Of a DNA stretch of 64,000 bases, positions 27,424-61,894 are shown one piece after another. Below the pieces are notes generated by a model. It had not been told where the DNA came from and did not search any database. It worked only from the letters and a program-made list of their open reading frames with translations. The stretch is from an uncultured Bacilli bacterium (GTDB lineage Bacteria; Bacillota_I; Bacilli_A; RF39; UBA660): contig CALVXF010000022.1 in assembly GCA_944368875.1 (NCBI GenBank), forward strand, positions 217 to 64,216, written 5' to 3'. The translations under genes were made by a program, and so were the position numbers. Numbering within the stretch: the stretch's first letter is position 1; each line of letters begins with the position of its first letter.

Positions 27424-27509
27424 GCCGACCTGGCGGAATGGTAGACGCAGTGGATTCAAAATCCACCGATAGAGATATCATAAGGGTTCAAGTCCCTTGG
27501 TCGGTACCA
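27424..27509 (+). tRNA. tRNA-Leu (anticodon CAA), with encoded CCA
   Basis: Acceptor stem GCCGACC/GGTCGGT. Anticodon loop TTCAAAA. Long variable arm. T-loop GGTTCAAGTCC. Terminal ACCA. Confidence 0.9.
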
Positions 27510-27627: not shown

Positions 27628-29250
27628 GTGATTTTAAGAAAGCCTTATGCCTTTTTAATTAAGAATTTTAAAAAGATTCATGCAGTCATGGCTTTGATTT
27701 TGCTATATTTAGTTTATAAGTCTAGTAATCTTATGAGTTTTTTAAATGAATATGTAACTGATCAACCTAGTTATGTAGGAACAGAGATAACAGATACTTT
27801 ATTTAATACTTGGATGTTTTTATTACCTGTTTTAATTATTTTGGCATCTATTGTAGTTATTGTATTGATGGTTAATAAACAAAAACCATATAGATTTTAT
27901 TTTATCAATATTGTTTCTTCTATTTTTGTTATTGTCTATTATGCCTATGCTTTGAATGTTATAGGTGATTTGGAGTTGCGTTTAGTTGATATCCGTATTA
28001 TGCGGGCAGTTCGTGATTTGATTGTTGTTGTTTATGCATCACAACTAATTTCTACAATTGTTACTTTTGCTCGTGCAACTGGATTTAATATTAAACAGTT
28101 TGACTTTGGTAAAGACTTAAAAGAAATGGAAATTAAAGAAAGCGACCGTGAAGAGTTTGAAGTAGAACTAAATGTTGATACTGATAAAGCTAAGCGTAAA
28201 GCACGAAGGACGTTTCGTTTTTCACGTTATTATTATTTAGAAAATCGTTTGATAATTAATGGTGTAGTAGCTATTACATTTGTGATAGTTTGTTTTTCTT
28301 TGTTTATGAATAGTTTCGTTTATAACAAGACATATTCATCTAGTGAATATTTTAATACTAGAGATTTTACAATGCGGATTGAAGATGCTTATGTAACAAC
28401 TAAAGATAGCAAAAATAACATTATTACTGATGAAAATCATAGTTTAGTTGTCTTGCGTGTTAAAATAAAAAAACGCTATCAAAATAGTGATGACATAGAA
28501 TTGGATGTGGCAAAAACTGCCTTAAAGTTAGGTGATACGCGCTATTATCCAATTATGACTTATCGTGATAAATTAACTGATATTGGTACTTCATATGAAT
28601 ACCAAATTATAACAGATGAATATGAATATTATCTATTAACTTATCAAGTAGAAACAGTTAAATTAGATAGCAAAACTAAAGAATTCAATTATGTTGAAAA
28701 TATGGTGTTTACAAAAAGAGGCATTAACCCCAATATTATCCATATAGCTTTGAATTTTAAAAATTTAGATAGTGATATTGAAGCGAAAAACTATAACTTA
28801 GAAGAGGAAGTATCTTTTGATGAAAGTATTTTAAAAGAATCAAAACTTACTGTTTCTAGTGTCGAAATAAATAATACTTTTAAAAATACATATCAATACT
28901 GCAGTACTAGTAATACATGTTATGATATGGTTGAATACTTAAAACCTAGCGTAAATAGTAATTATGATAAAACCCTTATTAAGTTTAGTTATCAATTAAT
29001 TAAAGATGAAACACTAACAACAAATACCATCAATAATTTGTATAATTTATTAAATGCATATGCAACAATCGAATATAAAATAGATGGTGTAGTTAAAAGG
29101 CAAACATCAGGTTTTGGTCAAGTCGTACCAACCAAAACCAAAGAAGATAATGTTGCATACATTGAAGTTGTTGATGAAGTTGCAAAAGCAAATGGAATAA
29201 ACTTGATATTAAAAGTAAGAAATAGTGAATATATTATCAAATTAAAGTAG
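27628..29250 (+). CDS. polytopic membrane protein with large C-terminal extracytoplasmic domain (first gene of the island)
   Basis: GTG start 8 nt after AGGAGG. About 5 TM helices followed by a soluble domain of about 310 aa. No recognisable family. Confidence 0.55.
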   Translation: MILRKPYAFLIKNFKKIHAVMALILLYLVYKSSNLMSFLNEYVTDQPSYVGTEITDTLFNTWMFLLPVLIILASIVVIVLMVNKQKPYRFYFINIVSSIFVIVYYAYALNVIGDLELRLVDIRIMRAVRDLIVVVYASQLISTIVTFARATGFNIKQFDFGKDLKEMEIKESDREEFEVELNVDTDKAKRKARRTFRFSRYYYLENRLIINGVVAITFVIVCFSLFMNSFVYNKTYSSSEYFNTRDFTMRIEDAYVTTKDSKNNIITDENHSLVVLRVKIKKRYQNSDDIELDVAKTALKLGDTRYYPIMTYRDKLTDIGTSYEYQIITDEYEYYLLTYQVETVKLDSKTKEFNYVENMVFTKRGINPNIIHIALNFKNLDSDIEAKNYNLEEEVSFDESILKESKLTVSSVEINNTFKNTYQYCSTSNTCYDMVEYLKPSVNSNYDKTLIKFSYQLIKDETLTTNTINNLYNLLNAYATIEYKIDGVVKRQTSGFGQVVPTKTKEDNVAYIEVVDEVAKANGINLILKVRNSEYIIKLK

Positions 29251-29297
29251 AAAATATAATAAATGTATGTTATAATTATAAAGTGGAGGATGGTAAG

Positions 29298-29957
29298 ATG
29301 AAAAGACTATTATTTATAATGGCTCTAGTATTTTTGCTATTCCCATTGAAAGTAGAAGCTACTTGGTATTGTGATTATAAAGATTTAGCTGAACTTAAAG
29401 CAATTGCTACTAATATTAAGTATATTTATGATTATCGTATTGAAAGTGACAAAGCTCTTTTTACAATTACTCTTACTAATATTTATAAAGAGTTTTATGT
29501 TTATGATGTTAAAAATAATAAATATTACTATCCTGATCAAAATAAAGATATAAGTGAAATCACAATCGATGGATATCAAAGTGGAATTTCTTATAATTTC
29601 GTTATTTACACAACACGTGAAAAATGTGAAGAAGAAACTGTTTATTCCTTTTATGTGACGTTACCAACTTATAACAAGTATTATCTTGATCCCTTGTGTG
29701 AAGGATATGAAAATTATAGTTTGTGTCAGAAATGGAATAATTTGGGAAATATGAGTTATGAAGAATTTAAAGATGATATGCAAGCCTATATAGATTCTTT
29801 AAAAGAACAGGAAGAAGCAAAAGAAGAGGATGATTTTTCGATATATTGGCTTTTAGAATTTTATTTAAAATATTATATGTATATTTTACCTAGTTTAATA
29901 GGAATATTATTAGTAACAATCTATGTGATATCTAAAAAAGATGATATCAAGTTTTAA
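29298..29957 (+). CDS. secreted/C-terminally anchored Cys-containing protein
   Basis: Signal peptide MKRLLFIMALVFLLFPLKVEA after a GGAGG RBS. C-terminal TM anchor. Conserved Cys residues. Confidence 0.5.
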   Translation: MKRLLFIMALVFLLFPLKVEATWYCDYKDLAELKAIATNIKYIYDYRIESDKALFTITLTNIYKEFYVYDVKNNKYYYPDQNKDISEITIDGYQSGISYNFVIYTTREKCEEETVYSFYVTLPTYNKYYLDPLCEGYENYSLCQKWNNLGNMSYEEFKDDMQAYIDSLKEQEEAKEEDDFSIYWLLEFYLKYYMYILPSLIGILLVTIYVISKKDDIKF

Positions 29958-29969
29958 AGGAAGTGAAAC

Positions 29970-32666
29970 ATGAAGAAATTGAAAGTAATTATAAAAAGAC
30001 ATTGGTATTTTCATTTTATGCTTTTAGCTATGTCAACACTTTGCTTGTCACTACATTTTGATAGTGTTAATGCGATGATGGTTTCTAATGGCCAATTAGC
30101 AGGTTCTGGTCTACCAGGAAGCAGCACTAGTACAGAAAAGTCACTTTATACAGCGACATTAAATAAAGGCGAATTTTTAGCTAAAACACCATTTACCTAT
30201 TTCCGTAGTAGTAATATGGCCCATTGGACAATTAACGGGGAAACAGCTTTTTGTATCGATGTTTATATCGATTATAATAAAAACATGAGTTTATATCGTC
30301 ATTCGCTTTATGAAGAATTTACTTTTTTTGAAGCAATTACAGTAAAACGGATTTTAAACTATGTTGACCTTCATAAAAGTGAAGATAACTCTATTTATGC
30401 GATTGCCCAAGCTTTAGTTTGGGGTATTCGAGAAAATGTTGGCGTTGATTTGCTTTTAAAAAGTGAAGCAACGAGGGACTTAGCTTATCAAGCTTATGCA
30501 GCGTATCGTGGCTTTGTACAAAAAAATGGCGAATACCCAGACATGGGGCCTGAAGAAAAAGCATATGTTGATAATGTATTAGCAGGTATGTGTGTTTCAA
30601 GTGCTGCTGGGACTTTCTATGTATATTATTCAGCTTGTGGTAATGAGTCTGATGAATGGCAACGCTATGTTACAAAAGCGCCAGGGACTTTATGTATTGG
30701 AGCTGAATGTGAGATAGATTGTGGTGAAGAAGGAGAAGGATGTAATAATACGCCAACTGTAAGTCTTGGTGGCAAGTGTGAAGGTGGAAGTTTCTTTGAT
30801 GATACTAACAATTGGGAATGTATTCAAGGAGACAGTCAATTTAAAGATACTTCGATTGCTGGTGAAAATAATCCTTATTGTACTTTCTTCTGTCGGGAAA
30901 CAGTTAATTTTAATTTTCCAGCTAGTAATTTCACTTTTTATGGAGGACAATATTTTACGATCGGTTCATCGGTAGCTGGTAATACATGGGGACCTATTTC
31001 CGTTTATGGTATTCGTAATTGCCGTAGTTATTATAAGGAAAATTCTGGTGATACTAATTATATACCAGGTATTGATTGGACACAATTTTTAGCCGATATT
31101 AAAAGCGATAACAATGCTATTAAAGCGGCTTATAATAAATGGAAAACAGCTCAAGGAGAGTTAGAGGCTTTAAAGAAGGCCAAAAAATATGTTACTAGAA
31201 AGGATTGTAATCCTTCTAATAATTTAAAACTAGAGATTGAAGATGAAGATTTAGATAAAGTTGAATGCGAATGCGCTAATGGTGGAACTTATCTTCCTGG
31301 AGCAAATAAATGCTTTGCTATTGTAAATTGGACAATTAGTATGGAAGAACCAGAAAGTTGTAGCTATGAAAAATATAAAGATATTACCTTACTATATGAA
31401 AATAATAAGTGGTATGTCACTAGAGATTCTCTAGAGTACTGGTATCCAACACAATCTAGTACGCAAGTAAATGCTGATGGTAATAAATTTTATCCACGAG
31501 TTTTTTATGAATATAATGCTAATTTGCATACTTATGGTAAGTGTGTAGCTTCTAGTAGTTCTTATAGTATAGATAAAGAAATTAGTAATAAACAAAAAGA
31601 AGTTAATAGTTTGTATAATGCTTATCGTAGCTTAACTGATAAAAGTCAGGCTAAGATTAATAATATTAAGGCTTGCGCGGGATCAACTGCTAAGTATAAT
31701 TTAAATCCTGTTATTACTTATAGATATGATGATTCTGAGTTTTTCAAATCTGGAACTTTAACTTCATCGGGATCAAGTTCTAGTGTTTCAAAGCAGACAA
31801 CGAATAAAGAAGCTGGAGAGATTAGTTATTCTTTATTAACTTGTACCAATGATGGTGGTTGTAAAACAAAAAGTTATACAATTACAGGATTGAAATTAAA
31901 AAATGTTACATCTAATGAGATAACTATTACAAGTCGTTCGACTTATACTTTAGGCAATACAGGGTATCGTTATGCTCTTAAAAGTAGAGGACAAGTTATT
32001 GGCTCAGTCAATGATGAGTTAAAGGGGGCTTATGTTGATTTAGGCGATGATGTCATTCCTTTAAGTTATACTTTGAAGACAGGATATTATAATATTGTTC
32101 TAAATTATTCTAATATTGGACATAATGGATATTTTGATAAATATGTTTCGCAAATAGGTGGTAATACAGAATATGTTTGTCCATTTTATTTAAAGAATGA
32201 TATTTTAGGGTTTGAAGATGACCCAAATGATCCAGATTATTCTAAAACTGGCCCTATTGGTTTAGATATCATTTATCGTCCTATTCAATTGGGAGAACAA
32301 GATGTTGCTTTTCCTAGTATAGATGGTGATGGTAGAAAGCCTGGCTCTAATTGGATTGGGACAACTTCTACTGGGCAAAGCTATGTTGATGCATATATTA
32401 CTTATAATCGAGGAGTTGATGATTATGAAGTTTATGATTTAGAACCCTTATACACGATAGAAATGACGCCAACTGTAATTAAAAAAATTCGAGAATACAA
32501 TAAAAATGTTGGCGATTATAATGATTTTAATTTAACGTGCACAAACGGTAAACAATGTTATAGTTCATTCATTCATTCTGAATTTGACGAATATATAGGT
32601 GGTAGTTGTGGTGATTCAGGAAGTGGTGAATTTAACTCTTGTGTGACTAGTGGAGGTGGCAGTTAG
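29970..32666 (+). CDS. large (898 aa) secreted cysteine-rich protein, candidate adhesin / filament-associated protein
   Basis: N-terminal signal sequence. About 30 Cys in paired patterns (CEIDCGEEGEGC, VECECANGG). No LPXTG motif. Stop overlaps the next gene's GTG start. Confidence 0.55.
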   Translation: MKKLKVIIKRHWYFHFMLLAMSTLCLSLHFDSVNAMMVSNGQLAGSGLPGSSTSTEKSLYTATLNKGEFLAKTPFTYFRSSNMAHWTINGETAFCIDVYIDYNKNMSLYRHSLYEEFTFFEAITVKRILNYVDLHKSEDNSIYAIAQALVWGIRENVGVDLLLKSEATRDLAYQAYAAYRGFVQKNGEYPDMGPEEKAYVDNVLAGMCVSSAAGTFYVYYSACGNESDEWQRYVTKAPGTLCIGAECEIDCGEEGEGCNNTPTVSLGGKCEGGSFFDDTNNWECIQGDSQFKDTSIAGENNPYCTFFCRETVNFNFPASNFTFYGGQYFTIGSSVAGNTWGPISVYGIRNCRSYYKENSGDTNYIPGIDWTQFLADIKSDNNAIKAAYNKWKTAQGELEALKKAKKYVTRKDCNPSNNLKLEIEDEDLDKVECECANGGTYLPGANKCFAIVNWTISMEEPESCSYEKYKDITLLYENNKWYVTRDSLEYWYPTQSSTQVNADGNKFYPRVFYEYNANLHTYGKCVASSSSYSIDKEISNKQKEVNSLYNAYRSLTDKSQAKINNIKACAGSTAKYNLNPVITYRYDDSEFFKSGTLTSSGSSSSVSKQTTNKEAGEISYSLLTCTNDGGCKTKSYTITGLKLKNVTSNEITITSRSTYTLGNTGYRYALKSRGQVIGSVNDELKGAYVDLGDDVIPLSYTLKTGYYNIVLNYSNIGHNGYFDKYVSQIGGNTEYVCPFYLKNDILGFEDDPNDPDYSKTGPIGLDIIYRPIQLGEQDVAFPSIDGDGRKPGSNWIGTTSTGQSYVDAYITYNRGVDDYEVYDLEPLYTIEMTPTVIKKIREYNKNVGDYNDFNLTCTNGKQCYSSFIHSEFDEYIGGSCGDSGSGEFNSCVTSGGGS

Positions 32667-33067
32667 TGAAGGAATCCTTTTGGGGTGTGTTTATTGTAGG
32701 TTTAGGTGTTACAGCAATTGCTTTTATTTATCTTTTTCAAAATATAACTAGTACAGACGAACACAATTATAATATTCTCAAAGAAACAACCGAAGCGGCG
32801 ATGATTGATGCTTTTGATTTAGCTAGTTATCGTTATGATGGAACAATCAGAATTGATAGAGAGAAGTTTGTGGAAAACTTTTATCGTCGTTTTGCTGAAA
32901 ATGCTAGTTTATCTAGAACATATTATATAGATATATATGATGTTAATGAGGAACCACCAAAAGTAAGTATAAAAGTTTCAAGTACTGAAAAATCAAATAT
33001 TACAGATGATGTGATGGAATTTGATATAGTAAATCAATTAGATGCTATATTAGAAGTTCCATATTAG
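32666..33067 (+). CDS. small N-terminally anchored extracytoplasmic protein
   Basis: GTG start overlapping the upstream stop. Single N-terminal TM followed by a domain of about 100 aa. Confidence 0.45.
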   Translation: MKESFWGVFIVGLGVTAIAFIYLFQNITSTDEHNYNILKETTEAAMIDAFDLASYRYDGTIRIDREKFVENFYRRFAENASLSRTYYIDIYDVNEEPPKVSIKVSSTEKSNITDDVMEFDIVNQLDAILEVPY

Positions 33068-33082
33068 AAAGGATAAAAAAAT

Positions 33083-33901
33083 ATGAATATAGTAACAAGT
33101 ATTACAAGATTTTTAAAAAATAAGAATATTGTCACAATCATGGGGGTTGTTGCGGTTGTGGCTATTTTGTATTTTGGTTATAACTATCAAATAAATCAAC
33201 AAACAAGCCCTATTTCTATTCCGGTTGCAAAAGAAACTATTCAACCGGGGACTTTAATAACTAGTGATATGATAACTTCTATTAGTATTCCTAGAATGGG
33301 AGTTTCTAGTAATGTTATTAGAAGTGCTAGTAGTATTGTTGGTAAATACACCAATTATAATACAGTGATACCAGCAGGATCAATGTTTTATACTGATGTT
33401 GTAATTGATCGCGAAGATTTACCTAATTCTTCTTTTACACAAGTTAAAGAAGGTGATGTCGTTTTTAATTTAAATGTTACGACTGAATCAACTTATGGTA
33501 ATTCTATTTTTCCAGGAGATTACATCGATATTTATATGAAAGCTGAAGATGATTCAGGTCAAATCATGGTAGGTAAGTTAGTTGAAAATATCGAAGTTTT
33601 AGCTTTAAAAGATTCTTCAGGACAAAATGTTTTTGAAGATAGTAGTGAAAGTAGATCACCTGCTTATATGATTTTTGGAGTTTCTTCAGAAATTCATATA
33701 TTACTTCGTAAAGCTCTTTATATGAGTGATTATAGTGTTGAACTTATTCCAGTCCCACATGGTGGTGAAATATTAGAAGAAGGAGAAACGCGTGTTAGTT
33801 CAACATATTTAAAAGAATTTATCAATTCTAAGACAGTTAATCTTCCAGTTGAAGATGACACTACTGTTGAAGAAGACAATTCTAATACAGAAGGAGAATA
33901 A
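33083..33901 (+). CDS. CpaB/RcpC-like (SAF domain) pilus assembly protein
   Basis: N-terminal TM followed by a SAF-like segment IPVAKETIQPGTLITSDMIT..IPR and a beta-rich domain. Sits immediately upstream of the TadA-like ATPase, as in Tad loci. Confidence 0.45.
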   Translation: MNIVTSITRFLKNKNIVTIMGVVAVVAILYFGYNYQINQQTSPISIPVAKETIQPGTLITSDMITSISIPRMGVSSNVIRSASSIVGKYTNYNTVIPAGSMFYTDVVIDREDLPNSSFTQVKEGDVVFNLNVTTESTYGNSIFPGDYIDIYMKAEDDSGQIMVGKLVENIEVLALKDSSGQNVFEDSSESRSPAYMIFGVSSEIHILLRKALYMSDYSVELIPVPHGGEILEEGETRVSSTYLKEFINSKTVNLPVEDDTTVEEDNSNTEGE

Positions 33902-33903
33902 TT

Positions 33904-35142
33904 ATGAGTGATAATATATTCTCACAAATGGATTTTGGATATTTTAAAGAATATTTAAATAATGATGATGTTACAGATATTTCTTATGATAATAATGGAC
34001 AAATACATTTAAAGACTTTATCTCAAGGTATTATAAGGGTAGAAAATCCAAATATAACTAATGCAGTTGTTGAAAAACTTGCATTTCAATGTGCGAATGC
34101 TATGGGGAAATCTTTCAATATGGCTTATCCTATGCTGGATGCTGAGAGTGCTGAATTACGTATGAATTTTATTCATGATTCAATTGCGCGAAATGGTATA
34201 GCCTTGGTTATTCGTAAAACACCTGCTAAAATACGACTTGAAAAAGACAAAATTATTGCTGATAAATATATTACTTTGGGAATTCATGATTTTCTAATCA
34301 AATGTATCGAAGGACATTGTAACATTATTGTATGTGGTGAAACCGGTTCAGGTAAAACAGAATTCGTTAAATATCTAGGTTCAAAAATTAAAGAAAACGA
34401 AAAAATTATAACGATTGAGGATACATTGGAACTCCATCTTGATAAAATATTTCCACATCGTGATATTGTTGCTTTGAAGACTAATAATATTGCTACATAC
34501 TCAGACATTTTAGTGGCTTGTATGCGTCAAAACCCTAAATGGATATTACTTTCCGAAGTGCGTAGTGCTGAAGCTGTCATGGCTGTTCGTAACTCTATTT
34601 CATCAGGGCATTATATTTTATCAACAATCCATGCTGACAAAGCTAGTAGTATTCCAAATCGTATGTATAGTTTGTTGGAAACTAATCAAGATATTGATCA
34701 ATTTCTAAAATCAATCTATCGTTATATTCAATTAGGAATATATATTCGTGGTTACCAAAGTCGAGAAACAGGCAAATTTGTTCGTGAAATAGCTGAAGTT
34801 ACAGAATTTTATGTAACCGAAGATAATGAAGCAAAGTATAATGTCATCTATAAAAAAGATTTATTTGGGAATGTTGTTAACAATGATCCTAGTAAATATT
34901 TGATTGAATATTTATCCGCTCAAGGAGTTCAATTGCCTGATGAAATGGTTGATCGTGCCCAAAATAAAAAAGATTCTGAAATTGGTGTTAGTGCTAATAC
35001 AACAATCGAAAAACCAAATGTTAAAAAAGTTACGCCAGTTGGTCCAACGAATAACCCGATTCCTACGAGTGTTAAAACAACTCAAAATCCAATTGGGGCA
35101 ATGCCCAATACAGCTAATGGAACCGTAAGTTCTAATACATAA
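33904..35142 (+). CDS. TadA/CpaF (VirB11-superfamily) secretion ATPase with P/T-rich C-terminal tail
   Basis: Walker A GETGSGKTE, the IITIEDTLEL motif, Walker B/His-box region RQNPKWILLSEVRSAEA, and HYILSTIHA. Confidence 0.75.
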   Translation: MSDNIFSQMDFGYFKEYLNNDDVTDISYDNNGQIHLKTLSQGIIRVENPNITNAVVEKLAFQCANAMGKSFNMAYPMLDAESAELRMNFIHDSIARNGIALVIRKTPAKIRLEKDKIIADKYITLGIHDFLIKCIEGHCNIIVCGETGSGKTEFVKYLGSKIKENEKIITIEDTLELHLDKIFPHRDIVALKTNNIATYSDILVACMRQNPKWILLSEVRSAEAVMAVRNSISSGHYILSTIHADKASSIPNRMYSLLETNQDIDQFLKSIYRYIQLGIYIRGYQSRETGKFVREIAEVTEFYVTEDNEAKYNVIYKKDLFGNVVNNDPSKYLIEYLSAQGVQLPDEMVDRAQNKKDSEIGVSANTTIEKPNVKKVTPVGPTNNPIPTSVKTTQNPIGAMPNTANGTVSSNT

Positions 35143-35154
35143 GGGAGGTGTAAT

Positions 35155-36057
35155 ATGGAATTACTAATGTTTTTGTTCATCGCTTTTATTATAGTATTTG
35201 TAATTGTTTATCGTTTAAACAACGGGCAAAACGTTTATAAATATATAATCGATACGGGAACTAATATTTATAATAAATATGCACCATATTCTTTTAAATC
35301 AGTTCGTGAAAAAGTAAAAGATTTGGGTCAAGAATACACACCTAGACAATATACAATTCAAATTATTACATTTGCAGCTGGAGCAGCAATAGTATCATAT
35401 TTATATTTCTATAGCATTATTACTTCTGTTATTTATTCTCTTATAGCAATATCTATAATTCCATATTTAACATATTTGCGTTGCAAGAGAATTTATAGTG
35501 AGTTTTTGTTTGAACAAGTTCAGGTTTACACAACTAATGTTATTATGGAATTTGCTACAACTCAAAGTTTCGTTAAAGCTTTAGAAGGTGTATATGAATC
35601 CGGTGTTCTTGAAGATCCAATCAAAACCGATGTTAAAGAGATGATTGATATGGCTTATGCCAATGGGACAATTGATCAATCTTTAGAATATATGAATGCT
35701 AAATATGATTATTATATTGTGCGCAATATGCATCAATTATTTTTACAAATTACTAATGAAGGAACTAGGGATAGCGGTGAGTCTTTGGAAAACATGTCAA
35801 TGGATATTGATATGTTAGTAGAAAATGTTTATCGCGACCGAATGGATAGAGCATCATTCCATAAAAAGTTTTTACAATTTGGTATAGTTTTATATTTGAT
35901 GGTCATGCTTGTTCAATTTCTTTTAGGTGTTGAAACTTATATTGAAATGTTAGATAACATTTTTGTTCAATTATTACTTCATGGTATAGTCATAGTAAAT
36001 ACATATTTCTTGTTGAACGGGGAAAAATATTATAATGAGAATGTAGGTGCTGAATAA
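35155..36057 (+). CDS. TadB-like (T2SSF/GspF-family) inner-membrane platform protein
   Basis: Topology is TM, two TM, cytoplasmic helical domain of about 130 aa, two C-terminal TM. Follows the TadA-like ATPase directly. Confidence 0.5.
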   Translation: MELLMFLFIAFIIVFVIVYRLNNGQNVYKYIIDTGTNIYNKYAPYSFKSVREKVKDLGQEYTPRQYTIQIITFAAGAAIVSYLYFYSIITSVIYSLIAISIIPYLTYLRCKRIYSEFLFEQVQVYTTNVIMEFATTQSFVKALEGVYESGVLEDPIKTDVKEMIDMAYANGTIDQSLEYMNAKYDYYIVRNMHQLFLQITNEGTRDSGESLENMSMDIDMLVENVYRDRMDRASFHKKFLQFGIVLYLMVMLVQFLLGVETYIEMLDNIFVQLLLHGIVIVNTYFLLNGEKYYNENVGAE

Positions 36058-36841
36058 TATGATATTTATTATTATATGTGCTATTATTTTGTTTGTCATG
36101 TTTTATAATAAAATGATAGATCAAAACAAATTTATTCAAGAAACAGAACCATATTTTCGCTTTTTAATGGAAGATGATTATGAATTCTTATTGCATATTA
36201 AGTATGGCGCTGATGTTGATGTCAATAAAATGTTTGGTATTAGAGTAAGAAATGGAATTGTTGTAATTGTAGTTATTATGTTTTATTTCCTTTCTAATTT
36301 AAATTTTATTAGTATATTATTTTCTTTTATCGTAGGATTTATAGTTTTTAAATCATCATATACAAAGTTGAATAGATATTATAAAAACAATTTACACAAT
36401 ATTAATTTAATGTTGCCTTATTATTTAAAAAGTTTGGAAATATTAATTCAACATTACACAGTTCCTGTTGCTTTATCTAAATCAATAGAAACTGCTCCTG
36501 ATATGTTTAAATCAGGTTTGCGTAAATTGTGTGAAAAAATTGAAGCTGGGGATTCTAGCGTTGATCCTTATATGGATTTTGCAAAAGAATACCCTGTTCG
36601 TGATTCGATGCGTATGATGCGTCTTTTATATCGTTTAGGTCTTGGTAGTCAAGAAAATAAACAAGAACAATTAATGATGTTTTCAAGAACTGTTTCAACA
36701 TTGCAAAACAAAAGTCGTGAACAAAAGTATAAAGAGCGTTTAGAAAAAATGGAACAAAAAACAATGATGATGCTTATGTGTACTGGTGGGGGTATTTTGT
36801 TTTTGATGTTGTTGTCAATGATGATGTTAATGAATTTATAA
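36047..36841 (+). CDS. TadC-like (T2SSF-family) platform protein, paralogue of the upstream gene
   Basis: Same TM/cytoplasmic-domain architecture as the preceding gene. Overlaps it by 11 nt. Confidence 0.5.
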   Translation: MLNNMIFIIICAIILFVMFYNKMIDQNKFIQETEPYFRFLMEDDYEFLLHIKYGADVDVNKMFGIRVRNGIVVIVVIMFYFLSNLNFISILFSFIVGFIVFKSSYTKLNRYYKNNLHNINLMLPYYLKSLEILIQHYTVPVALSKSIETAPDMFKSGLRKLCEKIEAGDSSVDPYMDFAKEYPVRDSMRMMRLLYRLGLGSQENKQEQLMMFSRTVSTLQNKSREQKYKERLEKMEQKTMMMLMCTGGGILFLMLLSMMMLMNL

Positions 36842-36842
36842 T

Positions 36843-36874
36843 TATTGCTAAAGAAATAAAAAGGTGTTATAATT
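36843..36874 (+). promoter_or_regulatory. sigma-A-type promoter with extended -10 (TTGCTA-17-TGTTATAAT) driving the small pilin-like gene
   Basis: Read directly from the sequence at 36845..36874. Confidence 0.5.
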
Positions 36875-36899
36875 AAGAAAAGATAGGATGGTGAAATAA

Positions 36900-37076
36900 T
36901 GAAAGAAGCTGCTGGAGAAGCAAATTTAACTGTAGTTGCAATTATTTTAATTGCTGTAATTGCTGCCGTTGTTACACCAATTATTAATAATGCTATGCAA
37001 ACTACAAGCGATCGTTCTGACTGCTTGAATAGAGGTTGTAATTGGGATACAAGTTCCAATTCATGTGATTGCTAAT
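36900..37076 (+). CDS. 58-aa Flp/pilin-like peptide with hydrophobic helix and 4-Cys C-terminal tail (not in ORF track)
   Basis: Sequence MKEAAGEANLTVVAIILIAVIAAVVTPIINNAMQTTSDRSDCLNRGCNWDTSSNSCDC. Strong promoter and RBS GGATGGTGA. Position matches flp in tadZABC-flp-tadEF loci. Confidence 0.5.
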
Positions 37077-37106
37077 AAATATATTTAACAAAAGGAGAAG
37101 GTTATA

Positions 37107-37340
37107 ATGAAAAGTAATAAAAGTATGGGAGAAAAAATATTTACCTGTTTTTTGGTTACTGTCATTATAGCCTTGTTATTCTTTCTAGTACTTTATATTT
37201 TGCAACAAACATGTCTTAATGATTGTTGCAAAGAGGCAGGAGGTATGAGTGTTAAGGATGGTGTGTGTGTTGATGTCAATGGAGACCGCATATCATCTAG
37301 TTCTTCATGCCATGATTCTTGTGAGTTTTGGAGGTGGTAG
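37107..37340 (+). CDS. small TM protein with Cys-rich extracytoplasmic tail
   Basis: Single TM helix followed by CLNDCCKEAGG...CVDV...CHDSCEF. Same architecture as the upstream peptide. Start may be the internal MGEKIF. Confidence 0.4.
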   Translation: MKSNKSMGEKIFTCFLVTVIIALLFFLVLYILQQTCLNDCCKEAGGMSVKDGVCVDVNGDRISSSSSCHDSCEFWRW

Positions 37341-37343
37341 TCT

Positions 37344-37802
37344 ATGAGTCAAAGTGTTGGTAGTGTTGCTTTATATAACATTGTTATAGTTTTTTTAGTC
37401 ATTGTATTTGCTTTTTTAGCCGCTACTATTAGTTACTCAAAGGCTTTTCGCGTTAATAGTCGAATTATTTTTGCTATTGAAAAGTATGAGGGTTATAATC
37501 AACTTTCTGCTGACCAAATTGAAGATGTGTTAGAGACTTTAGGTTATACACAAGATAAAAACTTTACTTGTCCAACACGAACTGAAAATGGTCAAAAATA
37601 TGATCCAATTACAAGAATATATAATAATTATGCTTATTGTATTTATTTGTTTCAAGAAGATGCAAGACACTATACTTATGGTGTTCAAACATATTTATAT
37701 GTTGACTTGCCATTTGTACAAGATGTTTTTAAATTGCCAATATATACTAAAACAGAAAGAATATTTTATTTTCATTCTGATGATGATAAGATTGAACCTT
37801 AA
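37344..37802 (+). CDS. N-terminally anchored pseudopilin-like protein (paralogue A)
   Basis: N-terminal hydrophobic segment followed by YSKAFRV...IEKY...TCPTRT...YCIY motifs shared with the next gene. Confidence 0.45.
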   Translation: MSQSVGSVALYNIVIVFLVIVFAFLAATISYSKAFRVNSRIIFAIEKYEGYNQLSADQIEDVLETLGYTQDKNFTCPTRTENGQKYDPITRIYNNYAYCIYLFQEDARHYTYGVQTYLYVDLPFVQDVFKLPIYTKTERIFYFHSDDDKIEP

Positions 37803-37828
37803 TGGTTTTTCAATAGGTAGGAGGAAAT

Positions 37829-38341
37829 ATGAAAGAGTCTATAGCTAATAGTTATATTTTTATGATTATAATTACTTTTATAATTATTATTATGCTTGTA
37901 TTTTTAAGTTCTCTTGCTTATTCAAAAGCTTTTAAAGTTAAAAATAAAATAATTGATTTAATTGAAAAATATGATGATGGTTATGAGCCTAATAAACAAA
38001 CACTTGATGCACAAATAGAAGAAGTATTAAAAGATATAGGCTATCGGATGAGCAACAATCATACTTGTCCAACACGAACATCAAAAAACGGAAGTGCTTT
38101 AACTGCTATTAATACACAAACAAATTATCGTTATTGTATATATAAAGAAGTACAAGGACGAGGTGTGCAATATTATGTTATTGCATATATGTATTTTGAT
38201 ATACCTGTCATCAATGAATATTTAGAATTTCCTTTATCAGGGCAAACTAAAGTGTTCTATGAAACTGTTGATAATCATCATAAATGTAATACTGATTCTG
38301 ATTGTGGTAATTTGAAATGTGTCGATAACAAGTGTATATAG
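37829..38341 (+). CDS. N-terminally anchored pseudopilin-like protein (paralogue B) with knottin-like Cys-rich C-terminus
   Basis: Shares YSKAFKV, IEKY, TCPTRT and YCIY with the upstream gene. C-terminal CNTDSDCGNLKCVDNKC. Confidence 0.45.
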   Translation: MKESIANSYIFMIIITFIIIIMLVFLSSLAYSKAFKVKNKIIDLIEKYDDGYEPNKQTLDAQIEEVLKDIGYRMSNNHTCPTRTSKNGSALTAINTQTNYRYCIYKEVQGRGVQYYVIAYMYFDIPVINEYLEFPLSGQTKVFYETVDNHHKCNTDSDCGNLKCVDNKCI

Positions 38342-38356
38342 AAGAGGGGTAAAATC

Positions 38357-39346
38357 ATGAATGTTATAATTGCTAATCGCTATGGTGCGATGTTACAATC
38401 ATTGGAAATCGAAGTTATTAAAAGATTAGATGGTGAATTCACAGTTGAAGAGATAATTAATCAGTTTCAAAATTTCTTTTATCAAAGAATGATTTTAGAT
38501 ATCACAGCGATAAAAGATTATAAAGATATCAAGAATTTACAAAAATTATCTATTTCTCTAGATATGGATAAAGTGATATTACTATTAGATGATTCACCAG
38601 ATAGTTCATCTAGTGAATACCTATCCAAACTAATTTCAATGGGTATCTATAATTTTACTAAAAATATTGAGGGGATAGTTTATTTATATAATAATCCTAA
38701 TAGTTATCGTGATGTTGCGCAATATCATCAATTAGATAGTATTAAAGAAGTAGTTGTTGAGAAATTTGGACCTAGTTCTGGAACCAAAATTATTGGTATT
38801 AAAAATGTTAATCAAAGTGCAGGAGCTACGACTTTTACTTATATGATGAAAAAACAATTAAGCAAAAATTATAGTGTTGTCGCAATCGAAGTAGACAAAC
38901 GAGATTTTATGTATTTCCGTGATAAAAACATGGTGTCGACAGCAACTCAAGATTTAGGAAATACTTTGGCTAAATATAATGGTAATGATGTTATTCTTGT
39001 TGACATGAATAATAGTGGTGTTGCTGAAGGAATGTGCCACGAAACTATTTACTTACTTGAACCTTCGACAATTAAATTAAATAAATTAATGTTGAGTAAT
39101 CGTAAGATCTTTAGTGAATTAAAAGAAAAGCATATTGTTTTAAACCAAAGCCTTTTGTCTCCTAAAGATGTATTAGCTTTTGAATACGAAGCGAAGACTA
39201 AAATCTTTTATAATATGCCACCACTTGATGAACGTGAAAAAGACATAGAAGCAATGGATCCTTTTTTAATGAAAATGGGTTTTGAACGTCAATCGAATGG
39301 TGAAAATGAGAAAAAGAAAAATATTTTAGGTTTATTTAACATATAA
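38357..39346 (+). CDS. TadZ/CpaE-like pseudo-ATPase (receiver-like N-domain + MinD/ParA-like domain with lysine-less Walker A)
   Basis: KIIGIKNVNQSAGATTFT aligns to the MinD-type KGGVGKTT P-loop, but K is replaced by A. Followed by a VILVDMNN-type Walker B region. Confidence 0.4.
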   Translation: MNVIIANRYGAMLQSLEIEVIKRLDGEFTVEEIINQFQNFFYQRMILDITAIKDYKDIKNLQKLSISLDMDKVILLLDDSPDSSSSEYLSKLISMGIYNFTKNIEGIVYLYNNPNSYRDVAQYHQLDSIKEVVVEKFGPSSGTKIIGIKNVNQSAGATTFTYMMKKQLSKNYSVVAIEVDKRDFMYFRDKNMVSTATQDLGNTLAKYNGNDVILVDMNNSGVAEGMCHETIYLLEPSTIKLNKLMLSNRKIFSELKEKHIVLNQSLLSPKDVLAFEYEAKTKIFYNMPPLDEREKDIEAMDPFLMKMGFERQSNGENEKKKNILGLFNI

Positions 39347-39349
39347 TAA

Positions 39350-39378
39350 GTTGACAAATACTTATAAATAAAGTAAAA
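39350..39378 (+). promoter_or_regulatory. canonical sigma-A promoter TTGACA-17-TAAAAT
   Basis: TTGACAaatacttataaataaagTAAAAT read directly. Drives the 116-aa two-TM protein. Confidence 0.55.
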
Positions 39379-39404
39379 TTAAATTAACAAATGGAGGTAA
39401 TTAT

Positions 39405-39755
39405 ATGTTTATTTTAGATACTGTTTCTTGTGGAGGAATTACAGGCATTCCAGAAATGTTACCAAACTTAGTTAGCATAGGTTATAATATTATTAAAATA
39501 TTTGTTCCAATTGCTTTGATTTTATTTGGTATGTGGGATTTAGGGAAAGCAGTTATGCAACAAAAAGAAGACGATATTAAGAAAGGACAAAAAACTTTCA
39601 TTCAACGTGTTATAGCAGCTGTAATAGTATTCCTAGTTTTCTCAATTGTTCAATTAGTATTTGGTCTATTAGCTTCAGCTAGTGGCGATGATTCAGAAAA
39701 CATCATGGACTGTGTTAATTGCTTTTTAGATAGTAGTAAATGTAGTGCTGACTAA
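39405..39755 (+). CDS. small two-TM protein with Cys-rich C-terminus; VirB2/TrbC-like pilin candidate
   Basis: Two hydrophobic helices separated by a charged loop. C-terminal CVNCFLDSSKCS. Own strong promoter. Followed by a terminator. Confidence 0.4.
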   Translation: MFILDTVSCGGITGIPEMLPNLVSIGYNIIKIFVPIALILFGMWDLGKAVMQQKEDDIKKGQKTFIQRVIAAVIVFLVFSIVQLVFGLLASASGDDSENIMDCVNCFLDSSKCSAD

Positions 39756-39762
39756 TTATAAA

Positions 39763-39796
39763 AATATAGAATAATATCTTTATTCTATATTTTTTT
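39763..39796 (+). terminator. rho-independent terminator
   Basis: ATAGAATAA..TTATTCTAT hairpin followed by TTTTTTTT. A -10 TATAAT follows at about 39803. Confidence 0.55.
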
Positions 39797-39829
39797 TGTG
39801 CTATAATTATAGTAGTTTATTGCGCTCAT

Positions 39830-41314
39830 TTGAGGAGAGATGTTATGAAAAAAACAAAAATATTAAACTGTTTAATATTTACATTATTTTTTATGTTTTC
39901 CACTATATTCAGTACAATGGAAGCAAAAGCATTAATGAACAAATCTAGTGTTGAAATTGTAGGAGGAATAGTTTATCGTGGTACTCATAATGACGGGACA
40001 AATTATACTATTACTATTAATTCAGCCAAGCGTGAAACTAAAATTCAACAACCTGGATATAATTACATTTTTACTTTTGATGTAACTATAAATAATCCTG
40101 TAAATGATAATTTGACTATAACTTATACCATTCAAAGAAATGATGCAAATAAATTAGCAAATAATTCTAATTCATTGCTGTGGACAGACTATTTTAGATA
40201 TATTGTTATGAATAAGAATGGAGAATATTCTATCACGAGTAGTAAACCAAATTCAGACGATTATCCCCTTATTGCCGAAATATCTAATCAAAGTTCAGTA
40301 ATGAAATTCGAAAACGATTTTATGTATTGCTCTGGTGATTTGGTTAAAGCAGGTGATAAAACCAATAAATTACCATATCAAGTTTGTGTTAAAAGGGTAC
40401 ATGGTGATTATTTCTTAATCAAAAAAGAAAATGGTACTGAAACAGCATTTGATTATCAAAATGCATATTCAGGAAATTGGAATGATGAAGATACATATAA
40501 AGGGAATAGTTATGTTAAGCCAATGCAATTTTATTTCAATCCTGATACTTCTGGGATATTTGACACTGAAGGTTTATATGTTTATTTTTATAAACAACAA
40601 ACAGGATTTAATCCTGATAGCAATTGGCAAGACTATTATGTTTCAGGATTAGATTTAACGGATGAAGAATATCAAGAAAATACAGCCCTTGAATTGGAAG
40701 AAGAGCTTAATACACAATATTTAGATTTAGGTAAATGTTTAATTAATAATGGTATTAATTCTAAATATCAGACGCAATGTGATACTTATTTAACTAATAG
40801 AACACCTATTGCAGGTATGACAGAAGAAGAGTTGGAAAATCTAAATATTTCAAATTATGCTAAATGTGTTTTGGAAAAAGAAAATAGTATTTTTATGGAT
40901 GATATAAATACTTATTGTTCTAGTGAATATCAAAATTTATCAGCTGAAAAAGACAGTTTAAAAGATTATGTTCAAAGCACGGGCAATGAAGAATTAATGA
41001 ATAAGTATGCGATTGAATATGGTTTCGATTTTAATTTTGAGATTACAGATGGTTGTGCTTCTTTAGGAAGTTTAATGGGCATTATCAAAGATATTTATAA
41101 TCTTATTTTTTACATTTTGTGTGCTGTTTTAGCAGTTATTACAATGTTTGATTATGCTAAAGCGGTTGTGGATAATGAAGAATTTAAAAACTTTAAAAAA
41201 GCTCATAAACATTTTGCTGTTAGAATAGCCGTTGTTGCAATTGTATGGCTTTTACCTAGTCTAGTTGAATTTATATTTAATTTAATTGGTTTAGGTGAAT
41301 ATTTCTGTTGGTAA
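39830..41314 (+). CDS. secreted Cys-containing protein with two C-terminal TM helices
   Basis: Signal peptide. Ectodomain of about 400 aa. C-terminal double TM anchor. Confidence 0.5.
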   Translation: MRRDVMKKTKILNCLIFTLFFMFSTIFSTMEAKALMNKSSVEIVGGIVYRGTHNDGTNYTITINSAKRETKIQQPGYNYIFTFDVTINNPVNDNLTITYTIQRNDANKLANNSNSLLWTDYFRYIVMNKNGEYSITSSKPNSDDYPLIAEISNQSSVMKFENDFMYCSGDLVKAGDKTNKLPYQVCVKRVHGDYFLIKKENGTETAFDYQNAYSGNWNDEDTYKGNSYVKPMQFYFNPDTSGIFDTEGLYVYFYKQQTGFNPDSNWQDYYVSGLDLTDEEYQENTALELEEELNTQYLDLGKCLINNGINSKYQTQCDTYLTNRTPIAGMTEEELENLNISNYAKCVLEKENSIFMDDINTYCSSEYQNLSAEKDSLKDYVQSTGNEELMNKYAIEYGFDFNFEITDGCASLGSLMGIIKDIYNLIFYILCAVLAVITMFDYAKAVVDNEEFKNFKKAHKHFAVRIAVVAIVWLLPSLVEFIFNLIGLGEYFCW

Positions 41315-50939: not shown

Positions 50940-52238
50940 ATGGAACAACAAGGATATGTTGATGAACATGGTGAAGTTATCAAATCCAAGGATTATCGTA
51001 AGAAATTAATTTTTATTGGTATCGGCGTAGGTTTAATTATCATTTTAACGATTATAATTATGATTGCGGTTAATATTTCACGTAATAAAAAATGTAATAG
51101 TATCGAAGATAGTTTTGCTGACGAAGTTTTAAAATATGCTGAAGATAATGATTTATTGCCAGATGCTTTAAGTGAAAGTGTTGAAATAAATGCATCAGAT
51201 TTATTAGATAATGGTTATTTGCAAGAAGGATTTACTTTCGATGAACAAACTTGTGGTGGTAAAGCTAAAATAACTTATGTTGATGGTGAATATGTTGTAA
51301 CTGTTGATGTTACTAATTGTGATAGATGTAGTGCTTCTTCAAGATATAGTGAGTGGAGCGATTGGCAAGAAAAATTGCCAAATAAACAAATTGTCGATGT
51401 TGAAGTGCGATATAATTATGTTGAAAAAACAACAAACTATACTGAATGGACAAATTATTATACACCTAAACAATTAACTAATAATCCAATTACTGATTAT
51501 ACTGATGATCGTTTTGTGACTATAAGTAAAGATGCTAAAAATATCGAAATTGTATCAGAGAATTTAACTTATTATCGTTATCGTGATAAGAGATGGAAAT
51601 TTTATCGCAATAATAATGCAGATTATTCAGATTTTTCTTCTGTTCAACCAAGTGGATATGCCAACAAAGATACAAGTACATCTCGTACAACAGAATGGAG
51701 TGAATGGAGTGTTAATGCACCTGAAGAAGCTTCATATCGTCGTATAGAAACGAAAACCGGATATCGTTGGTATTATGAAGAAGGTAAAGAGAAGATTTAT
51801 TATAATGGAGGTCAATATTTACCTGAAGCACCTGATGATAAATATACTGAAAGAGATAAAGATGATAAGGCAACTATTTATCGTTATCGTGATACTGAAT
51901 GGCGTTGGTATAACGGTGAAAAAAGAGGATATAGTTCATTCATGTCTGAAGCTACATCTACATACAAATACAAAGATGAAGGATTAGTAAGCTATAGCAA
52001 TTATTCTAGTTGGTCTACTACTTCTAAAGTAGATAGTTCAAATGATAATTATCGTGAAGAAGAAACTGAAATTCGAACACGTTATCGTTTGAAATATGAT
52101 TTATATTCTTATAATTTATTAAGCGAATCAGTATTGAAAGAGGGCTTTGCTAGTGCTACTGGAATGAGCTTAGAAGAAGTTTTAAATAATTCATCTTATG
52201 CTGTAGTTTTTGAATATAGATATAGATATAAAAAGTAA
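50940..52238 (+). CDS. membrane-anchored surface protein with aromatic W/Y-rich repeats
   Basis: N-terminal TM. Repeated YRYRD.(R/E)W(K/R)(F/W)Y and (S/T)EWS(D/E)W motifs. Start at MEQQGY after an AGGAG RBS. Confidence 0.5.
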   Translation: MEQQGYVDEHGEVIKSKDYRKKLIFIGIGVGLIIILTIIIMIAVNISRNKKCNSIEDSFADEVLKYAEDNDLLPDALSESVEINASDLLDNGYLQEGFTFDEQTCGGKAKITYVDGEYVVTVDVTNCDRCSASSRYSEWSDWQEKLPNKQIVDVEVRYNYVEKTTNYTEWTNYYTPKQLTNNPITDYTDDRFVTISKDAKNIEIVSENLTYYRYRDKRWKFYRNNNADYSDFSSVQPSGYANKDTSTSRTTEWSEWSVNAPEEASYRRIETKTGYRWYYEEGKEKIYYNGGQYLPEAPDDKYTERDKDDKATIYRYRDTEWRWYNGEKRGYSSFMSEATSTYKYKDEGLVSYSNYSSWSTTSKVDSSNDNYREEETEIRTRYRLKYDLYSYNLLSESVLKEGFASATGMSLEEVLNNSSYAVVFEYRYRYKK

Positions 52239-61089: not shown

Positions 61090-61112
61090 AAAGAGCATTT
61101 GCTCTTTATTTT
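61090..61112. terminator. bidirectional terminator between the LtaS-family gene and the convergent M23 peptidase gene
   Basis: AAAGAGCA..TGCTCTTT hairpin flanked by A/T runs. Confidence 0.55.
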
Positions 61113-61894
61113 ATTGTCAAAACTTGACCTGGTTTAATTAGATTTGGATTACTACCAATTATTTTTTTATTGTCTTCATAAATAATTTGCCATGTAGTAT
61201 TAAACTTTTTAGCAATCCTACTTAAGGTGTCACCTTTAACAACTGTATAAGTTTTAACATTTGCATTTGTACTAATATTTTCCTTAGCTACCCATCCTAG
61301 TTTATCAATATGATATGGTTTTGTTCCTTTTAAATTGATGATGGTAATAATTCCTTCGTGATTGACTAAAGTCTTACCAGCTTTACCGCCATAACTATTA
61401 CTATACAAAGTGCCATTGACAACTACTTTATCGCCAACTTTAAAACTTACATCAGATGTTTCTTCTTCATATGTTTCAGCAAAAACTTCAGGATCGACAT
61501 ATTCTTTTTTATTTAAATCATATATTGCTAAATGTAGATGAATACCAGTGGCTAAACCTGTTTTACCAGTATAGCCAATAATAGTATTATTATCGACTTG
61601 TTGATTTTTGGATACTTTAATACTGTCTAAATGATAATGGGACATATTCACGTTTAGACGGGGATAATTAATTACTACAAATTTTGCTCCAGCTTGGTCT
61701 GTTCCAAGATTGACAATAGTTCCTTTTTCTAATGCATATTGTGGAAGTTTTTTGCCATCAGTTCCATAATCTGTACCATTATGGAATGTAGGTGTAGTAA
61801 CACCATTTACAACAATACTACTGCGATCACCAAAATTGCTTGTAATATAGTGTTTGGATCCTTTAAAGATTTTCTCCGTTATTTTGCTCATCAT
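61106..61894 (-). CDS. M23 family peptidoglycan endopeptidase with C-terminal LysM domain (endolysin-like)
   Basis: M23 motifs HYHLD and GIHLHLAIYD. LysM YTVVKGDTLSRIAKKF..IKPGQVLTI. The start is ambiguous among the three ATGs downstream of the GGAGGTG RBS; the track gives 61906. Confidence 0.75.
   Translation of the reverse strand: MMSKITEKIFKGSKHYITSNFGDRSSIVVNGVTTPTFHNGTDYGTDGKKLPQYALEKGTIVNLGTDQAGAKFVVINYPRLNVNMSHYHLDSIKVSKNQQVDNNTIIGYTGKTGLATGIHLHLAIYDLNKKEYVDPEVFAETYEEETSDVSFKVGDKVVVNGTLYSNSYGGKAGKTLVNHEGIITIINLKGTKPYHIDKLGWVAKENISTNANVKTYTVVKGDTLSRIAKKFNTTWQIIYEDNKKIIGSNPNLIKPGQVLTIK

Follow-up and report, generated by a model that had tools for sequence, protein, structure and literature searches.

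Gram-positive thioester adhesins (TIE proteins) combine a thioester domain (TED) with a stalk of isopeptide or ester domains and are usually anchored by sortase. In ordinary members, isopeptide (CnaB) domains stabilize the protein both mechanically and against proteases. Gram-positive type IV secretion systems (T4SSs) generally count as lacking pili, and the Firmicutes are the textbook case of cysteine exclusion from exported proteins. We analyzed a 64,000-nucleotide stretch of DNA from an uncultured Bacilli bacterium (GenBank assembly GCA_944368875.1, contig CALVXF010000022.1, positions 217 to 64,216), here called the window, which contains a co-directional block of genes on the + strand (27628-50535; here, the cluster). 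Our main new result is that this cluster is a pLS20-type pilus/T4SS operon with a divergent thioester adhesin, whose stalk is scaffolded by Cys residues instead of isopeptide domains. In the pLS20 system of Bacillus subtilis, conjugation in liquid is efficient only with the adhesin TIEpLS20 (gene 34), which loses its activity through the C68S substitution and carries no LPXTG motif (PMC8092201).

Other described systems share parts of this architecture. In F-like T4SSs, the Cys-rich periplasmic and outer-membrane proteins TraN (about 20 conserved Cys), TraH, and TraU depend on the thioredoxin-fold TrbB/TraF (PMC7555446). With numerous conserved Cys in both the mating-pair adhesin and the proteins of assembly, this is the closest functional analogy to the cluster, although no relation in sequence or fold is expected. 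F-like systems work in a Gram-negative periplasm with their own disulfide isomerase, whereas the cluster would act at a monoderm surface, and no isomerase was seen in it. Patescibacteria have chromosomal, relaxase-less T4SSs with VirB2-like arrays, for which roles other than conjugation have been proposed (10.1101/2025.01.22.634366). The cluster resembles these MPF_FATA-like systems in being chromosomal, with no relaxase nearby, VirB2-like (PF18895) genes in 1 to 4 copies, and a probably reduced host genome; Patescibacteria are, however, another phylum, and the cluster keeps a coupling protein and a pLS20-type adhesin/ATPase module. By analogy, a nonconjugation role may also apply to the cluster. 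For gut Clostridia, a CpaF/PilC/DUF5411 operon has been predicted to be a system related to secretion (Miller et al. 2022, PMC9523054). With that operon and Tad (type IVc) pili, the cluster has in common an ATPase of the CpaF/FlaI type, DUF5411, a CpaB/RcpC-like protein, and short pilins whose N-terminal helix is hydrophobic. It differs in being physically fused to a T4SS, in lacking a Flp_Fap match and the Flp G/XXXXEY motif in its pilin (N terminus MKEAAGEANLTVV...), in lacking a T2SSF match for its two membrane proteins, and in that no A24 prepilin peptidase (TadV/CpaA) was found among the scanned window open reading frames (ORFs) of at least 100 amino acids (aa).

The pLS20-type gene order and the probable thioester adhesin

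An earlier, sequence-only reading of the window had treated the block as an island of Cys-rich proteins and overlooked what gene order and homology show, that it is a pLS20-type conjugation/pilus operon. The pLS20-type operons (pBatNRS213, NZ_CP079739) have the same order: Tie adhesin, DUF5411-like protein, CpaF/VirB11 ATPase, two membrane proteins, pseudopilin-like protein, a duplicated 47-aa pilin-like protein, VirD4, an extended VirB6, a VirB3-like protein, and a protein of about 190 aa plus VirB4. The position of VirD4 differs, being last in the cluster and before VirB6 in the plasmids, and the cluster has extra genes (540-aa, 224-aa, CpaB-like, and VirB2-like). Unlike the pLS20 plasmids, the window copy lies in a chromosome, and the 64 kb contain neither a relaxase gene nor replication genes.

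The plasmid link was first found via the ATPase only, which by tblastn against plasmids matched pLS20-family Bacillus plasmids (VirB11-like ATPase, 35% identity, E = 4e-46) and a Paraclostridium plasmid; DUF5411 gave no match in the same kind of search. Further homology to pBatNRS213 came from VirB4 (E = 5e-30), VirD4 (E = 3e-48), and the DUF5411 protein, which is 29% identical (E = 7e-5) to a 126-aa protein encoded just 5' of the plasmid ATPase gene.

TEDs are defined by three motifs: [YFL]C-hydrophobic-hydrophilic in a strand, a helical TQxx-hydrophobic-W, and hydrophobic-Q-hydrophilic-hydrophobic-hydrophobic (PMC4450167). All three occur, in this order of Cys, helix, and Gln motif, in the secreted 898-aa protein of the cluster. 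The Cys motif is A-F-C95-I-D, in strand 91-95 of the AlphaFold2 model; the helix motif is A-Q147-A-L-V-W151 in helix 140-154, with Ala replacing Thr; and the Gln motif, expected about 130 to 150 residues after the Cys, is W-Q231-R-Y-V, where the pLS20-family and Paraclostridium TEDs have YQRLM and LQRLS. C95, Q147, W151, and Q231 are each invariant in 22/22 TED-bearing relatives, and no other residue of the N-terminal domain is. With an 80-sequence alignment, AlphaFold2 modeled the protein at pLDDT 76.8 and pTM 0.62 (a single-sequence model, at pLDDT 31, was useless), and Foldseek matched the TED fold to SaTIE-TED with a probability of 0.99. In hhalign, the region of the Cys motif aligned with that of Tie from pBatNRS213 and with the TED of Paraclostridium (probability 92%, E = 6e-7); such profile-profile comparison is the only sequence tie of the protein to known TEDs. 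Model and sequence comparison thus suggest that the 898-aa protein is likely a divergent thioester-domain adhesin that curated models do not match. The earlier reading also missed that C95 is most likely a thioester warhead and not a disulfide partner.

Like the 898-aa adhesin, TIEpLS20 has a signal peptide followed by a TED with an xFCID-type motif and has no LPXTG. At its C terminus (...NSCVTSGGGS), the window protein has neither LPXTG nor a membrane helix or anchor. The stalks differ: in TIEpLS20, a protein with only one Cys, the stalk is a predicted CnaB isopeptide structure, whereas the window adhesin has about 25 further Cys in its stalk, and no CnaA/CnaB isopeptide or ester domain was detected after its TED. 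Compared with class I/II TEDs (SfbI, Cpa, CpTIE, SaTIE, BaTIE, EfmTIE86), the window TED is missed by Pfam and NCBIfam models, is not sortase-anchored, and is followed by a Cys-rich scaffold in place of isopeptide/ester domains.

TED motifs were present in only 16 to 22 of the approximately 160 family members examined. Judged by sequence, the N-terminal head of the adhesin family is variable, and the conserved part is the Cys scaffold with the C-terminal domain. When 1.84 billion representatives were searched with HMMER without an index, 538 clusters at 50% identity fell in the family. For this large family (at least 538 such clusters, no Pfam model), ours is a first assignment, to adhesins of a conjugation-type apparatus, some with a thioester head.

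We propose that a Tad-like pilus module is combined here with a Gram-positive T4SS and would be fixed in the chromosome of uncultured anaerobic gut Bacilli. C95 and Q231 are predicted to form an internal thioester that would attack an amine on a target surface, linking the cell to it covalently. The homologous pLS20 adhesin promotes mating-pair formation; the window apparatus would serve cell-to-cell contact and might transfer DNA. The conserved Cys of the stalk and C-terminal domain most likely form intramolecular disulfides in the adhesin, and the same would hold in the tails of the pilins and in the pseudopilin-like, VirB2-like, and 224-aa proteins. In the adhesin, these disulfides would take over the mechanical and protease-protecting role of isopeptide (CnaB) domains.

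Cysteine content and conservation

The sequence-only reading had put the Cys of the 898-aa protein at about 30. There are 27, of which 26 follow the signal peptide (3.0%); its counts were otherwise essentially right. The Cys that it listed in smaller ORFs are also present (224-aa, 4; 58-aa, 4; 77-aa, 7; 170-aa, 6; 116-aa, 4; 494-aa, 10), as are all the motifs it quoted: in the 898-aa protein CEIDCGEEGEGC (C247/251/258), VECECANGG (C433/435), and CTNDGGC (C625/631), and in the 170-aa protein CNTDSDCGNLKCVDNKC (C153/159/164/169).

The comparison of Cys inside and outside the block that it had suggested was run at window scale, with topology assigned by hand from hydropathy. Cys make up 2.01% of the extracytoplasmic segments of the cluster (71/3530), compared with 0.54% of its cytoplasmic proteins (12/2207; Fisher P = 2e-6), 0.23% of exported proteins elsewhere in the window (3/1311; P = 4e-7), and 0.74% of the remaining window proteins (78/10477; P = 3e-9). 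Without the 898-aa protein, the extracytoplasmic segments still contain 1.69% Cys (P = 2e-5). The individual extracytoplasmic parts of the cluster contain 2, 4, 26, 0, 0, 4, 6, 2, 6, 4, 8, 5, 0, and 4 Cys; the sole odd number belongs to the CHAP hydrolase (5), which has a catalytic Cys.

Using the DUF5411 gene to scan one genome per species, we found 31 syntenic loci. Nearly all are titled uncultured Bacilli, Tenericutes, or Firmicutes and come from human, rabbit, and ruminant guts, and gene order and Cys pattern are common to all 31. The gene 5' of DUF5411 encodes a large secreted protein of 600 to 1240 aa with 24 to 51 Cys in the 20 loci with a full-length BLAST match; three of the most divergent loci have a large Cys-rich ORF in this place that cannot be aligned, and the others are truncated or have no long ORF 5' of DUF5411. 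A word-indexed database returned two matches with the 898-aa protein and the query alone with a 21-sequence alignment; one weak match of the protein pointed to a metagenomic locus that is syntenic and shows this Cys pattern as well. Full-length proteins among the best 150 HMMER matches have 20 to 60 mature Cys, with a median of 31 (2.1 to 5.4%).

Cys columns are near-invariant in cluster families that are otherwise 25 to 45% identical. In an alignment of 80 relatives that are 22 to 42% identical to the 898-aa window protein, with a mean column identity of 11%, at least 90% of the sequences have Cys at 20 of its 26 mature Cys positions. The four Cys columns of the 224-aa family hold Cys in 26/26, 25/26, 26/26, and 26/26 homologues (28 to 43% identity; one close relative, 72%). 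C76 and C99 of the 152-aa protein are Cys in 23/24 and 24/24 homologues, and C80 and C103 of the 170-aa protein in 24/24 and 24/24. The 58-aa pilin-like family has 20 homologues, 14 of them with four Cys, typically as CC..C..C. Cytoplasmic and membrane-embedded machinery proteins in the related loci have 0 to 2 Cys, and the ATPase has 5 to 8.

The plasmid relatives differ in this respect. Tie of pBatNRS213 (778 aa) contains the thioester Cys only, the Paraclostridium TED protein has two Cys, one of them in the signal peptide, and the pilin-like, pseudopilin-like, and DUF5411-like proteins of both plasmid versions have none. Cys-richness thus belongs to the machine in its gut-Bacilli form. Paraclostridium is anaerobic, yet its version is Cys-free, so anaerobiosis alone does not explain the enrichment.

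Probable disulfide pairing and the rival explanations

If the ectodomain Cys are paired and a TED adds one reactive Cys, the parity of mature Cys should depend on the TED. Among adhesin relatives, the number is odd in 16/19 with a TED and even in 92/131 without one (Fisher P = 8e-6 for the switch), which fits one thioester Cys plus paired Cys. A first parity test, on 21 species loci, had given 6 even and 15 odd, seemingly contradicting disulfides. Predicted beta hairpins lie between the members of two conserved pairs, C625/C631 and C857/C863, a placement no more than suggestive of bonding. The disulfide-stabilized surface structures offered by the sequence-only reading are supported by the conservation of Cys in divergent families and by the parity switch with the TED. 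That the cluster ectodomain Cys form disulfides is, on this sequence evidence, well supported indirectly.

The same reading had offered metal binding as the other possibility, and this is not supported. The close spacing of so many Cys could reflect sites of the Zn or Fe-S type, and the window showed no thiol oxidase. In the adhesin family, however, CxC (z = -5.2) and CxxC (z = -3.4) are depleted and C-x3 to x10-C is enriched (z up to 11). Because CxxC is depleted, metal sites are argued against; the His content of the family is only 1.1%, the location is extracellular, and a switch of parity with the TED is expected for pairing, not for metal clusters. We regard metal sites as very improbable. 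A different objection is that high Cys is general among exported proteins of an anaerobic lineage, the cluster being nothing special. The rule that Firmicutes exoproteins are Cys-poor, which the earlier reading had taken as its premise, holds mainly for aerobes and is weaker for anaerobes: 70% of exported proteins have no Cys in aerobic Firmicutes, against 33% in anaerobic ones (PMC2823432). A 435-aa membrane protein outside the cluster has four Cys, and a membrane-anchored, housekeeping-side protein flanking two related loci (L007:579-1199 and L008:637-1227) has exactly two conserved Cys, one at each end of the ectodomain, which hints that the lineage also uses disulfides outside the apparatus. 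In a small sample, however, the Cys content of exported proteins outside the cluster is 0.23% in the window and 0.46% for seven proteins from flanks of related loci, against 2 to 5% inside, and we think this explanation improbable.

The sequence-only reading had also suggested a horizontal origin for the whole block. A recently acquired integrative conjugative element, with Cys-richness mirroring the composition of a foreign donor, would agree with the homology to plasmid conjugation operons, with a start beside tRNA-Leu (beside tRNA-Gln in related locus L010), and with cluster neighborhoods that differ between sub-lineages. As a recent event, this is not supported: the 64-kb window contains no integrase, relaxase, or replication gene, a search for a copy of the tRNA-Leu end found no att repeat, and the GC content of the cluster equals that of its flanks. 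L006-L008 have the same scpA-scpB-tRNA-Leu-cluster junction (ScpA/B 53 to 72% identical), and in L020, L022, L023, and L029 the cluster is adjoined by an inverted scpBA; across all these genomes ScpA/B are only 50 to 72% identical, with the divergence of the cluster proteins keeping step with that of flanking housekeeping proteins. Nor would a foreign donor explain the Cys-richness, as the plasmid-borne relatives are Cys-free. We consider recent acquisition, too, an improbable account. Ancient mobility is likely because the neighborhood differs among sub-lineages (tRNA-Gln in L010, ThrRS or an ABC transporter in others), and the cluster clearly stems, in the end, from a conjugative element.

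We therefore favor, as likely, the reading that the block encodes the exposed parts of a pLS20-type contact/T4SS apparatus with a thioester adhesin and disulfide-scaffolded Cys in a gut Bacilli lineage. Several points weigh against it. The enrichment had been called systematic and is not fully so: the ectodomains of the DUF5411 (133 aa), CpaB-like (272 aa), and 219-aa proteins hold no Cys. The exported proteins compared from outside the cluster number only 11 (4 from the window and 7 from flanks). The sequences compared for parity lack phylogenetic independence, and the window adhesin is itself one of the three TED-bearing exceptions, as its 26 mature Cys include C95 and leave 25. Most of the 15 odd loci of the first test are without a TED motif and fall within the 39 odd non-TED members, so that the thioester Cys explains only part of them. 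No gene for DsbA/BdbD, DsbB/VKOR, a thioredoxin-fold protein, or another thiol oxidase was found in the 64 kb, and the host probably lives as a strict anaerobe. The 898-aa protein matches no Pfam or NCBIfam model, those for TEDs included, at E up to 0.1. The pilus was identified from the ATPase, the CpaB match, and gene position, with neither prepilin peptidase nor Flp motif found in the searches above.

If this reading is right, a disulfide stalk in an adhesin would be unusual for Firmicutes, and a whole surface machine with 2 to 5% conserved Cys would be an exception to Firmicute Cys exclusion. It raises the question of how oxidative folding proceeds at the surface of an anaerobic gut Firmicute with no obvious Dsb system nearby. 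The Cys-free plasmid relatives allow a clean natural comparison of disulfides with isopeptides as means of toughening extracellular proteins, and the operon places pilin-like and VirB2-like genes together in a Gram-positive T4SS. A more far-reaching reading, which we put forward tentatively and think rather unlikely, is that a pLS20-type machine was domesticated lineage-wide into a permanent, relaxase-less contact organelle (pilus, T4SS, and covalent adhesin), with a disulfide scaffold replacing the isopeptide/Cys-free build. Its role would then be attachment to host or partner cells and not plasmid transfer, and it would imply an unrecognized capacity for oxidative folding in strictly anaerobic Firmicutes.

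Components and surroundings of the cluster

Coordinates are collected in Table 1. The window has a GC content of about 29%, as in low-GC Firmicute DNA, and housekeeping genes run up to scpA/scpB and the tRNA-Leu gene beside which the cluster starts. A hairpin lies 3' of the stop codon of VirD4/TraG, the last gene of the cluster; beyond it housekeeping genes return (rhodanese, VTT-domain protein, RmuC, two RNase R genes, and SmpB). The host encodes pyruvate formate-lyase; because of this and its relatives among gut metagenome-assembled genomes (MAGs), it is probably an anaerobe.

Table 1. Positions in the window of the cluster genes and of neighboring features
Feature	Position	Strand	Basis or description
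scpA/scpB	end 27400		Housekeeping
tRNA-Leu(caa)	27424-27509		Adjoins the cluster
540-aa polytopic membrane protein	27628-29250	+	ORF, hydropathy; first cluster gene; large C-terminal ectodomain
224-aa protein	29283-29957	+	Signal peptide, ectodomain with 4 Cys (30, 115, 139, 148), C-terminal membrane anchor
898-aa Sec-secreted putative adhesin	29970-32666	+	Signal peptide 1-35, TED ~58-241, Cys-scaffolded stalk and conserved C-terminal domain ~242-898
Predicted TED (residues 58-241)	30141-30692	+
Predicted thioester Cys95 codon (AFCID)	30252-30254
Predicted thioester Gln231 codon (WQRYV)	30660-30662
DUF5411 protein (133 aa), pseudopilin-like	32666-33067	+	PF17424, E = 3e-53; N-terminal membrane helix, 0 Cys
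CpaB/RcpC-like protein (272 aa)	33083-33901	+	PF16976, 30.2 bits (cutoff, 28.8), SAF domain; N-terminal anchor, 0 Cys
CpaF/VirB11/FlaI-type secretion ATPase (412 aa)	33904-35142	+	PF00437, E = 2e-27; cytoplasmic
Polytopic membrane protein (300 aa)	35155-36057	+	Position and hydropathy only
Polytopic membrane protein (264 aa)	36047-36841	+	Position and hydropathy only
58-aa pilin-like protein	36899-37075	+	Conserved N terminus MKEAAGEANLTVVAIIL..., short tail with 4 Cys
77-aa second pilin-like protein	37107-37340	+	6 Cys in 45-aa tail; homologue only in the closest locus, L006
152-aa pseudopilin-like protein	37344-37802	+	N-terminal helix, 2 invariant Cys; paralogue of the next
170-aa pseudopilin-like protein	37829-38341	+	N-terminal helix, 2 invariant Cys
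329-aa conserved cytoplasmic protein	38357-39346	+	1 Cys; kept in 21 loci at 46-92% identity
116-aa VirB2-like protein	39405-39755	+	Weak PF18895 T4SS_pilin match, E = 0.003; two membrane helices
494-aa protein	39830-41314	+	Signal peptide, ~390-aa ectodomain (7 Cys), C-terminal VirB2-like two-helix module, C-terminal Cys
Type IV secretion genes	41365-50535	+	TrbL/VirB6-like (610 aa), TcpE/VirB3-like (109 aa), 190-aa and 594-aa VirB4, CHAP cell-wall hydrolase (552 aa), 219-aa bitopic protein, VirD4/TraG coupling protein (760 aa); Pfam
VirB4, 190-aa ORF	43486-44058	+	NF045975 (Mycoplasma ICE VirB4)
VirB4, 594-aa ORF	44058-45842	+
Rhodanese (96 aa)	50582-50872		PF00581, single domain
435-aa membrane-anchored protein	50931-52238
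RNase R paralogues	54379-56487, 56562-58715		RNB/CSD2/S1
Holin family protein beside an M23 peptidase/LysM protein	61106-62300	-	PF05105, phage type

Several components carry no recognizable family. PDB sequence searches with the 898-, 494-, 224-, 540-, 329-, and 300-aa proteins returned nothing meaningful. The 540-aa protein has no Pfam, NCBIfam, or PDB match; its ectodomain holds two Cys, C425 and C431 (C-x5-C), and 27 related loci have a homologue at the same position. The 329-aa protein likewise matches no family or PDB entry. The best PDB matches of the ATPase are FlaI, GspE2, and CpaF. The 300- and 264-aa proteins occupy the position of the platform proteins TadB/TadC, where pLS20-type operons also have a pair of membrane proteins following the ATPase, and have no Pfam (including T2SSF), NCBIfam, or PDB sequence match. 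Initial labels of TadZ, TadB, and TadC were withdrawn, as they had no sequence support.

The 170-aa paralogue has an additional C-terminal 4-Cys knot (CNTDSDCGNLKCVDNKC). In the 116-aa protein, Cys lie at both outward-facing ends (C9; C103, C106, and C113), and the C103 column is Cys in 18/18. Related loci have one to four copies of this VirB2-like protein; L001 (18211-19562), L026, L027, and L029 have arrays of the PF18895 type with three or four divergent copies of 3 to 8 Cys each. The 494-aa protein also matches PF18895 weakly, at residues 414-475. A frameshifted or split VirB4 was considered and rejected: an equivalent pair of about 192 aa and 631 aa is conserved in pLS20-family and Paraclostridium plasmids, so the two ORFs are the normal arrangement of the family.

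Some related loci carry further genes or variants. In L034 (5981-9655), simple ORF calling fused the DUF5411 domain in frame to an extracellular region of about 1090 aa with 48 Cys; if real, the fusion suggests a physical link, within the apparatus, between the pseudopilin-like DUF5411 protein and the adhesin rich in Cys, but it could be an assembly artifact of the MAG. A YfhO-family membrane glycosyltransferase (PF09586, E = 1e-127) directly follows the pilin gene in L010 (10125-12521) and likewise in L013, and another polytopic GT-C-like protein does so in L022 (18672-19811), a hint that some members glycosylate their pilins. There is an N-L-T sequon in the pilin N terminus. In two divergent loci, L033 (4707-5240) and L034 (3318-3806), a gene in or beside the cluster encodes a membrane-anchored DUF6568 protein whose match to thioredoxin-like proteins is weak. 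We rejected it as a built-in oxidoreductase, as it is without CxxC and the L034 copy is without mature Cys.

Right after the coupling-protein gene and the hairpin, a rhodanese with an active-site Cys marks the return to housekeeping genes. It is followed, just outside the cluster, by the 435-aa protein, whose four ectodomain Cys include CDRC and which has repeated Y-R-Y-R-D...W-type motifs and no family match. Two full-length RNase R paralogues lie in tandem directly 5' of smpB. On the - strand, the holin family protein adjoins an M23 peptidase/LysM protein, and these neighbors may be a pair for lysis or cell-wall remodeling.

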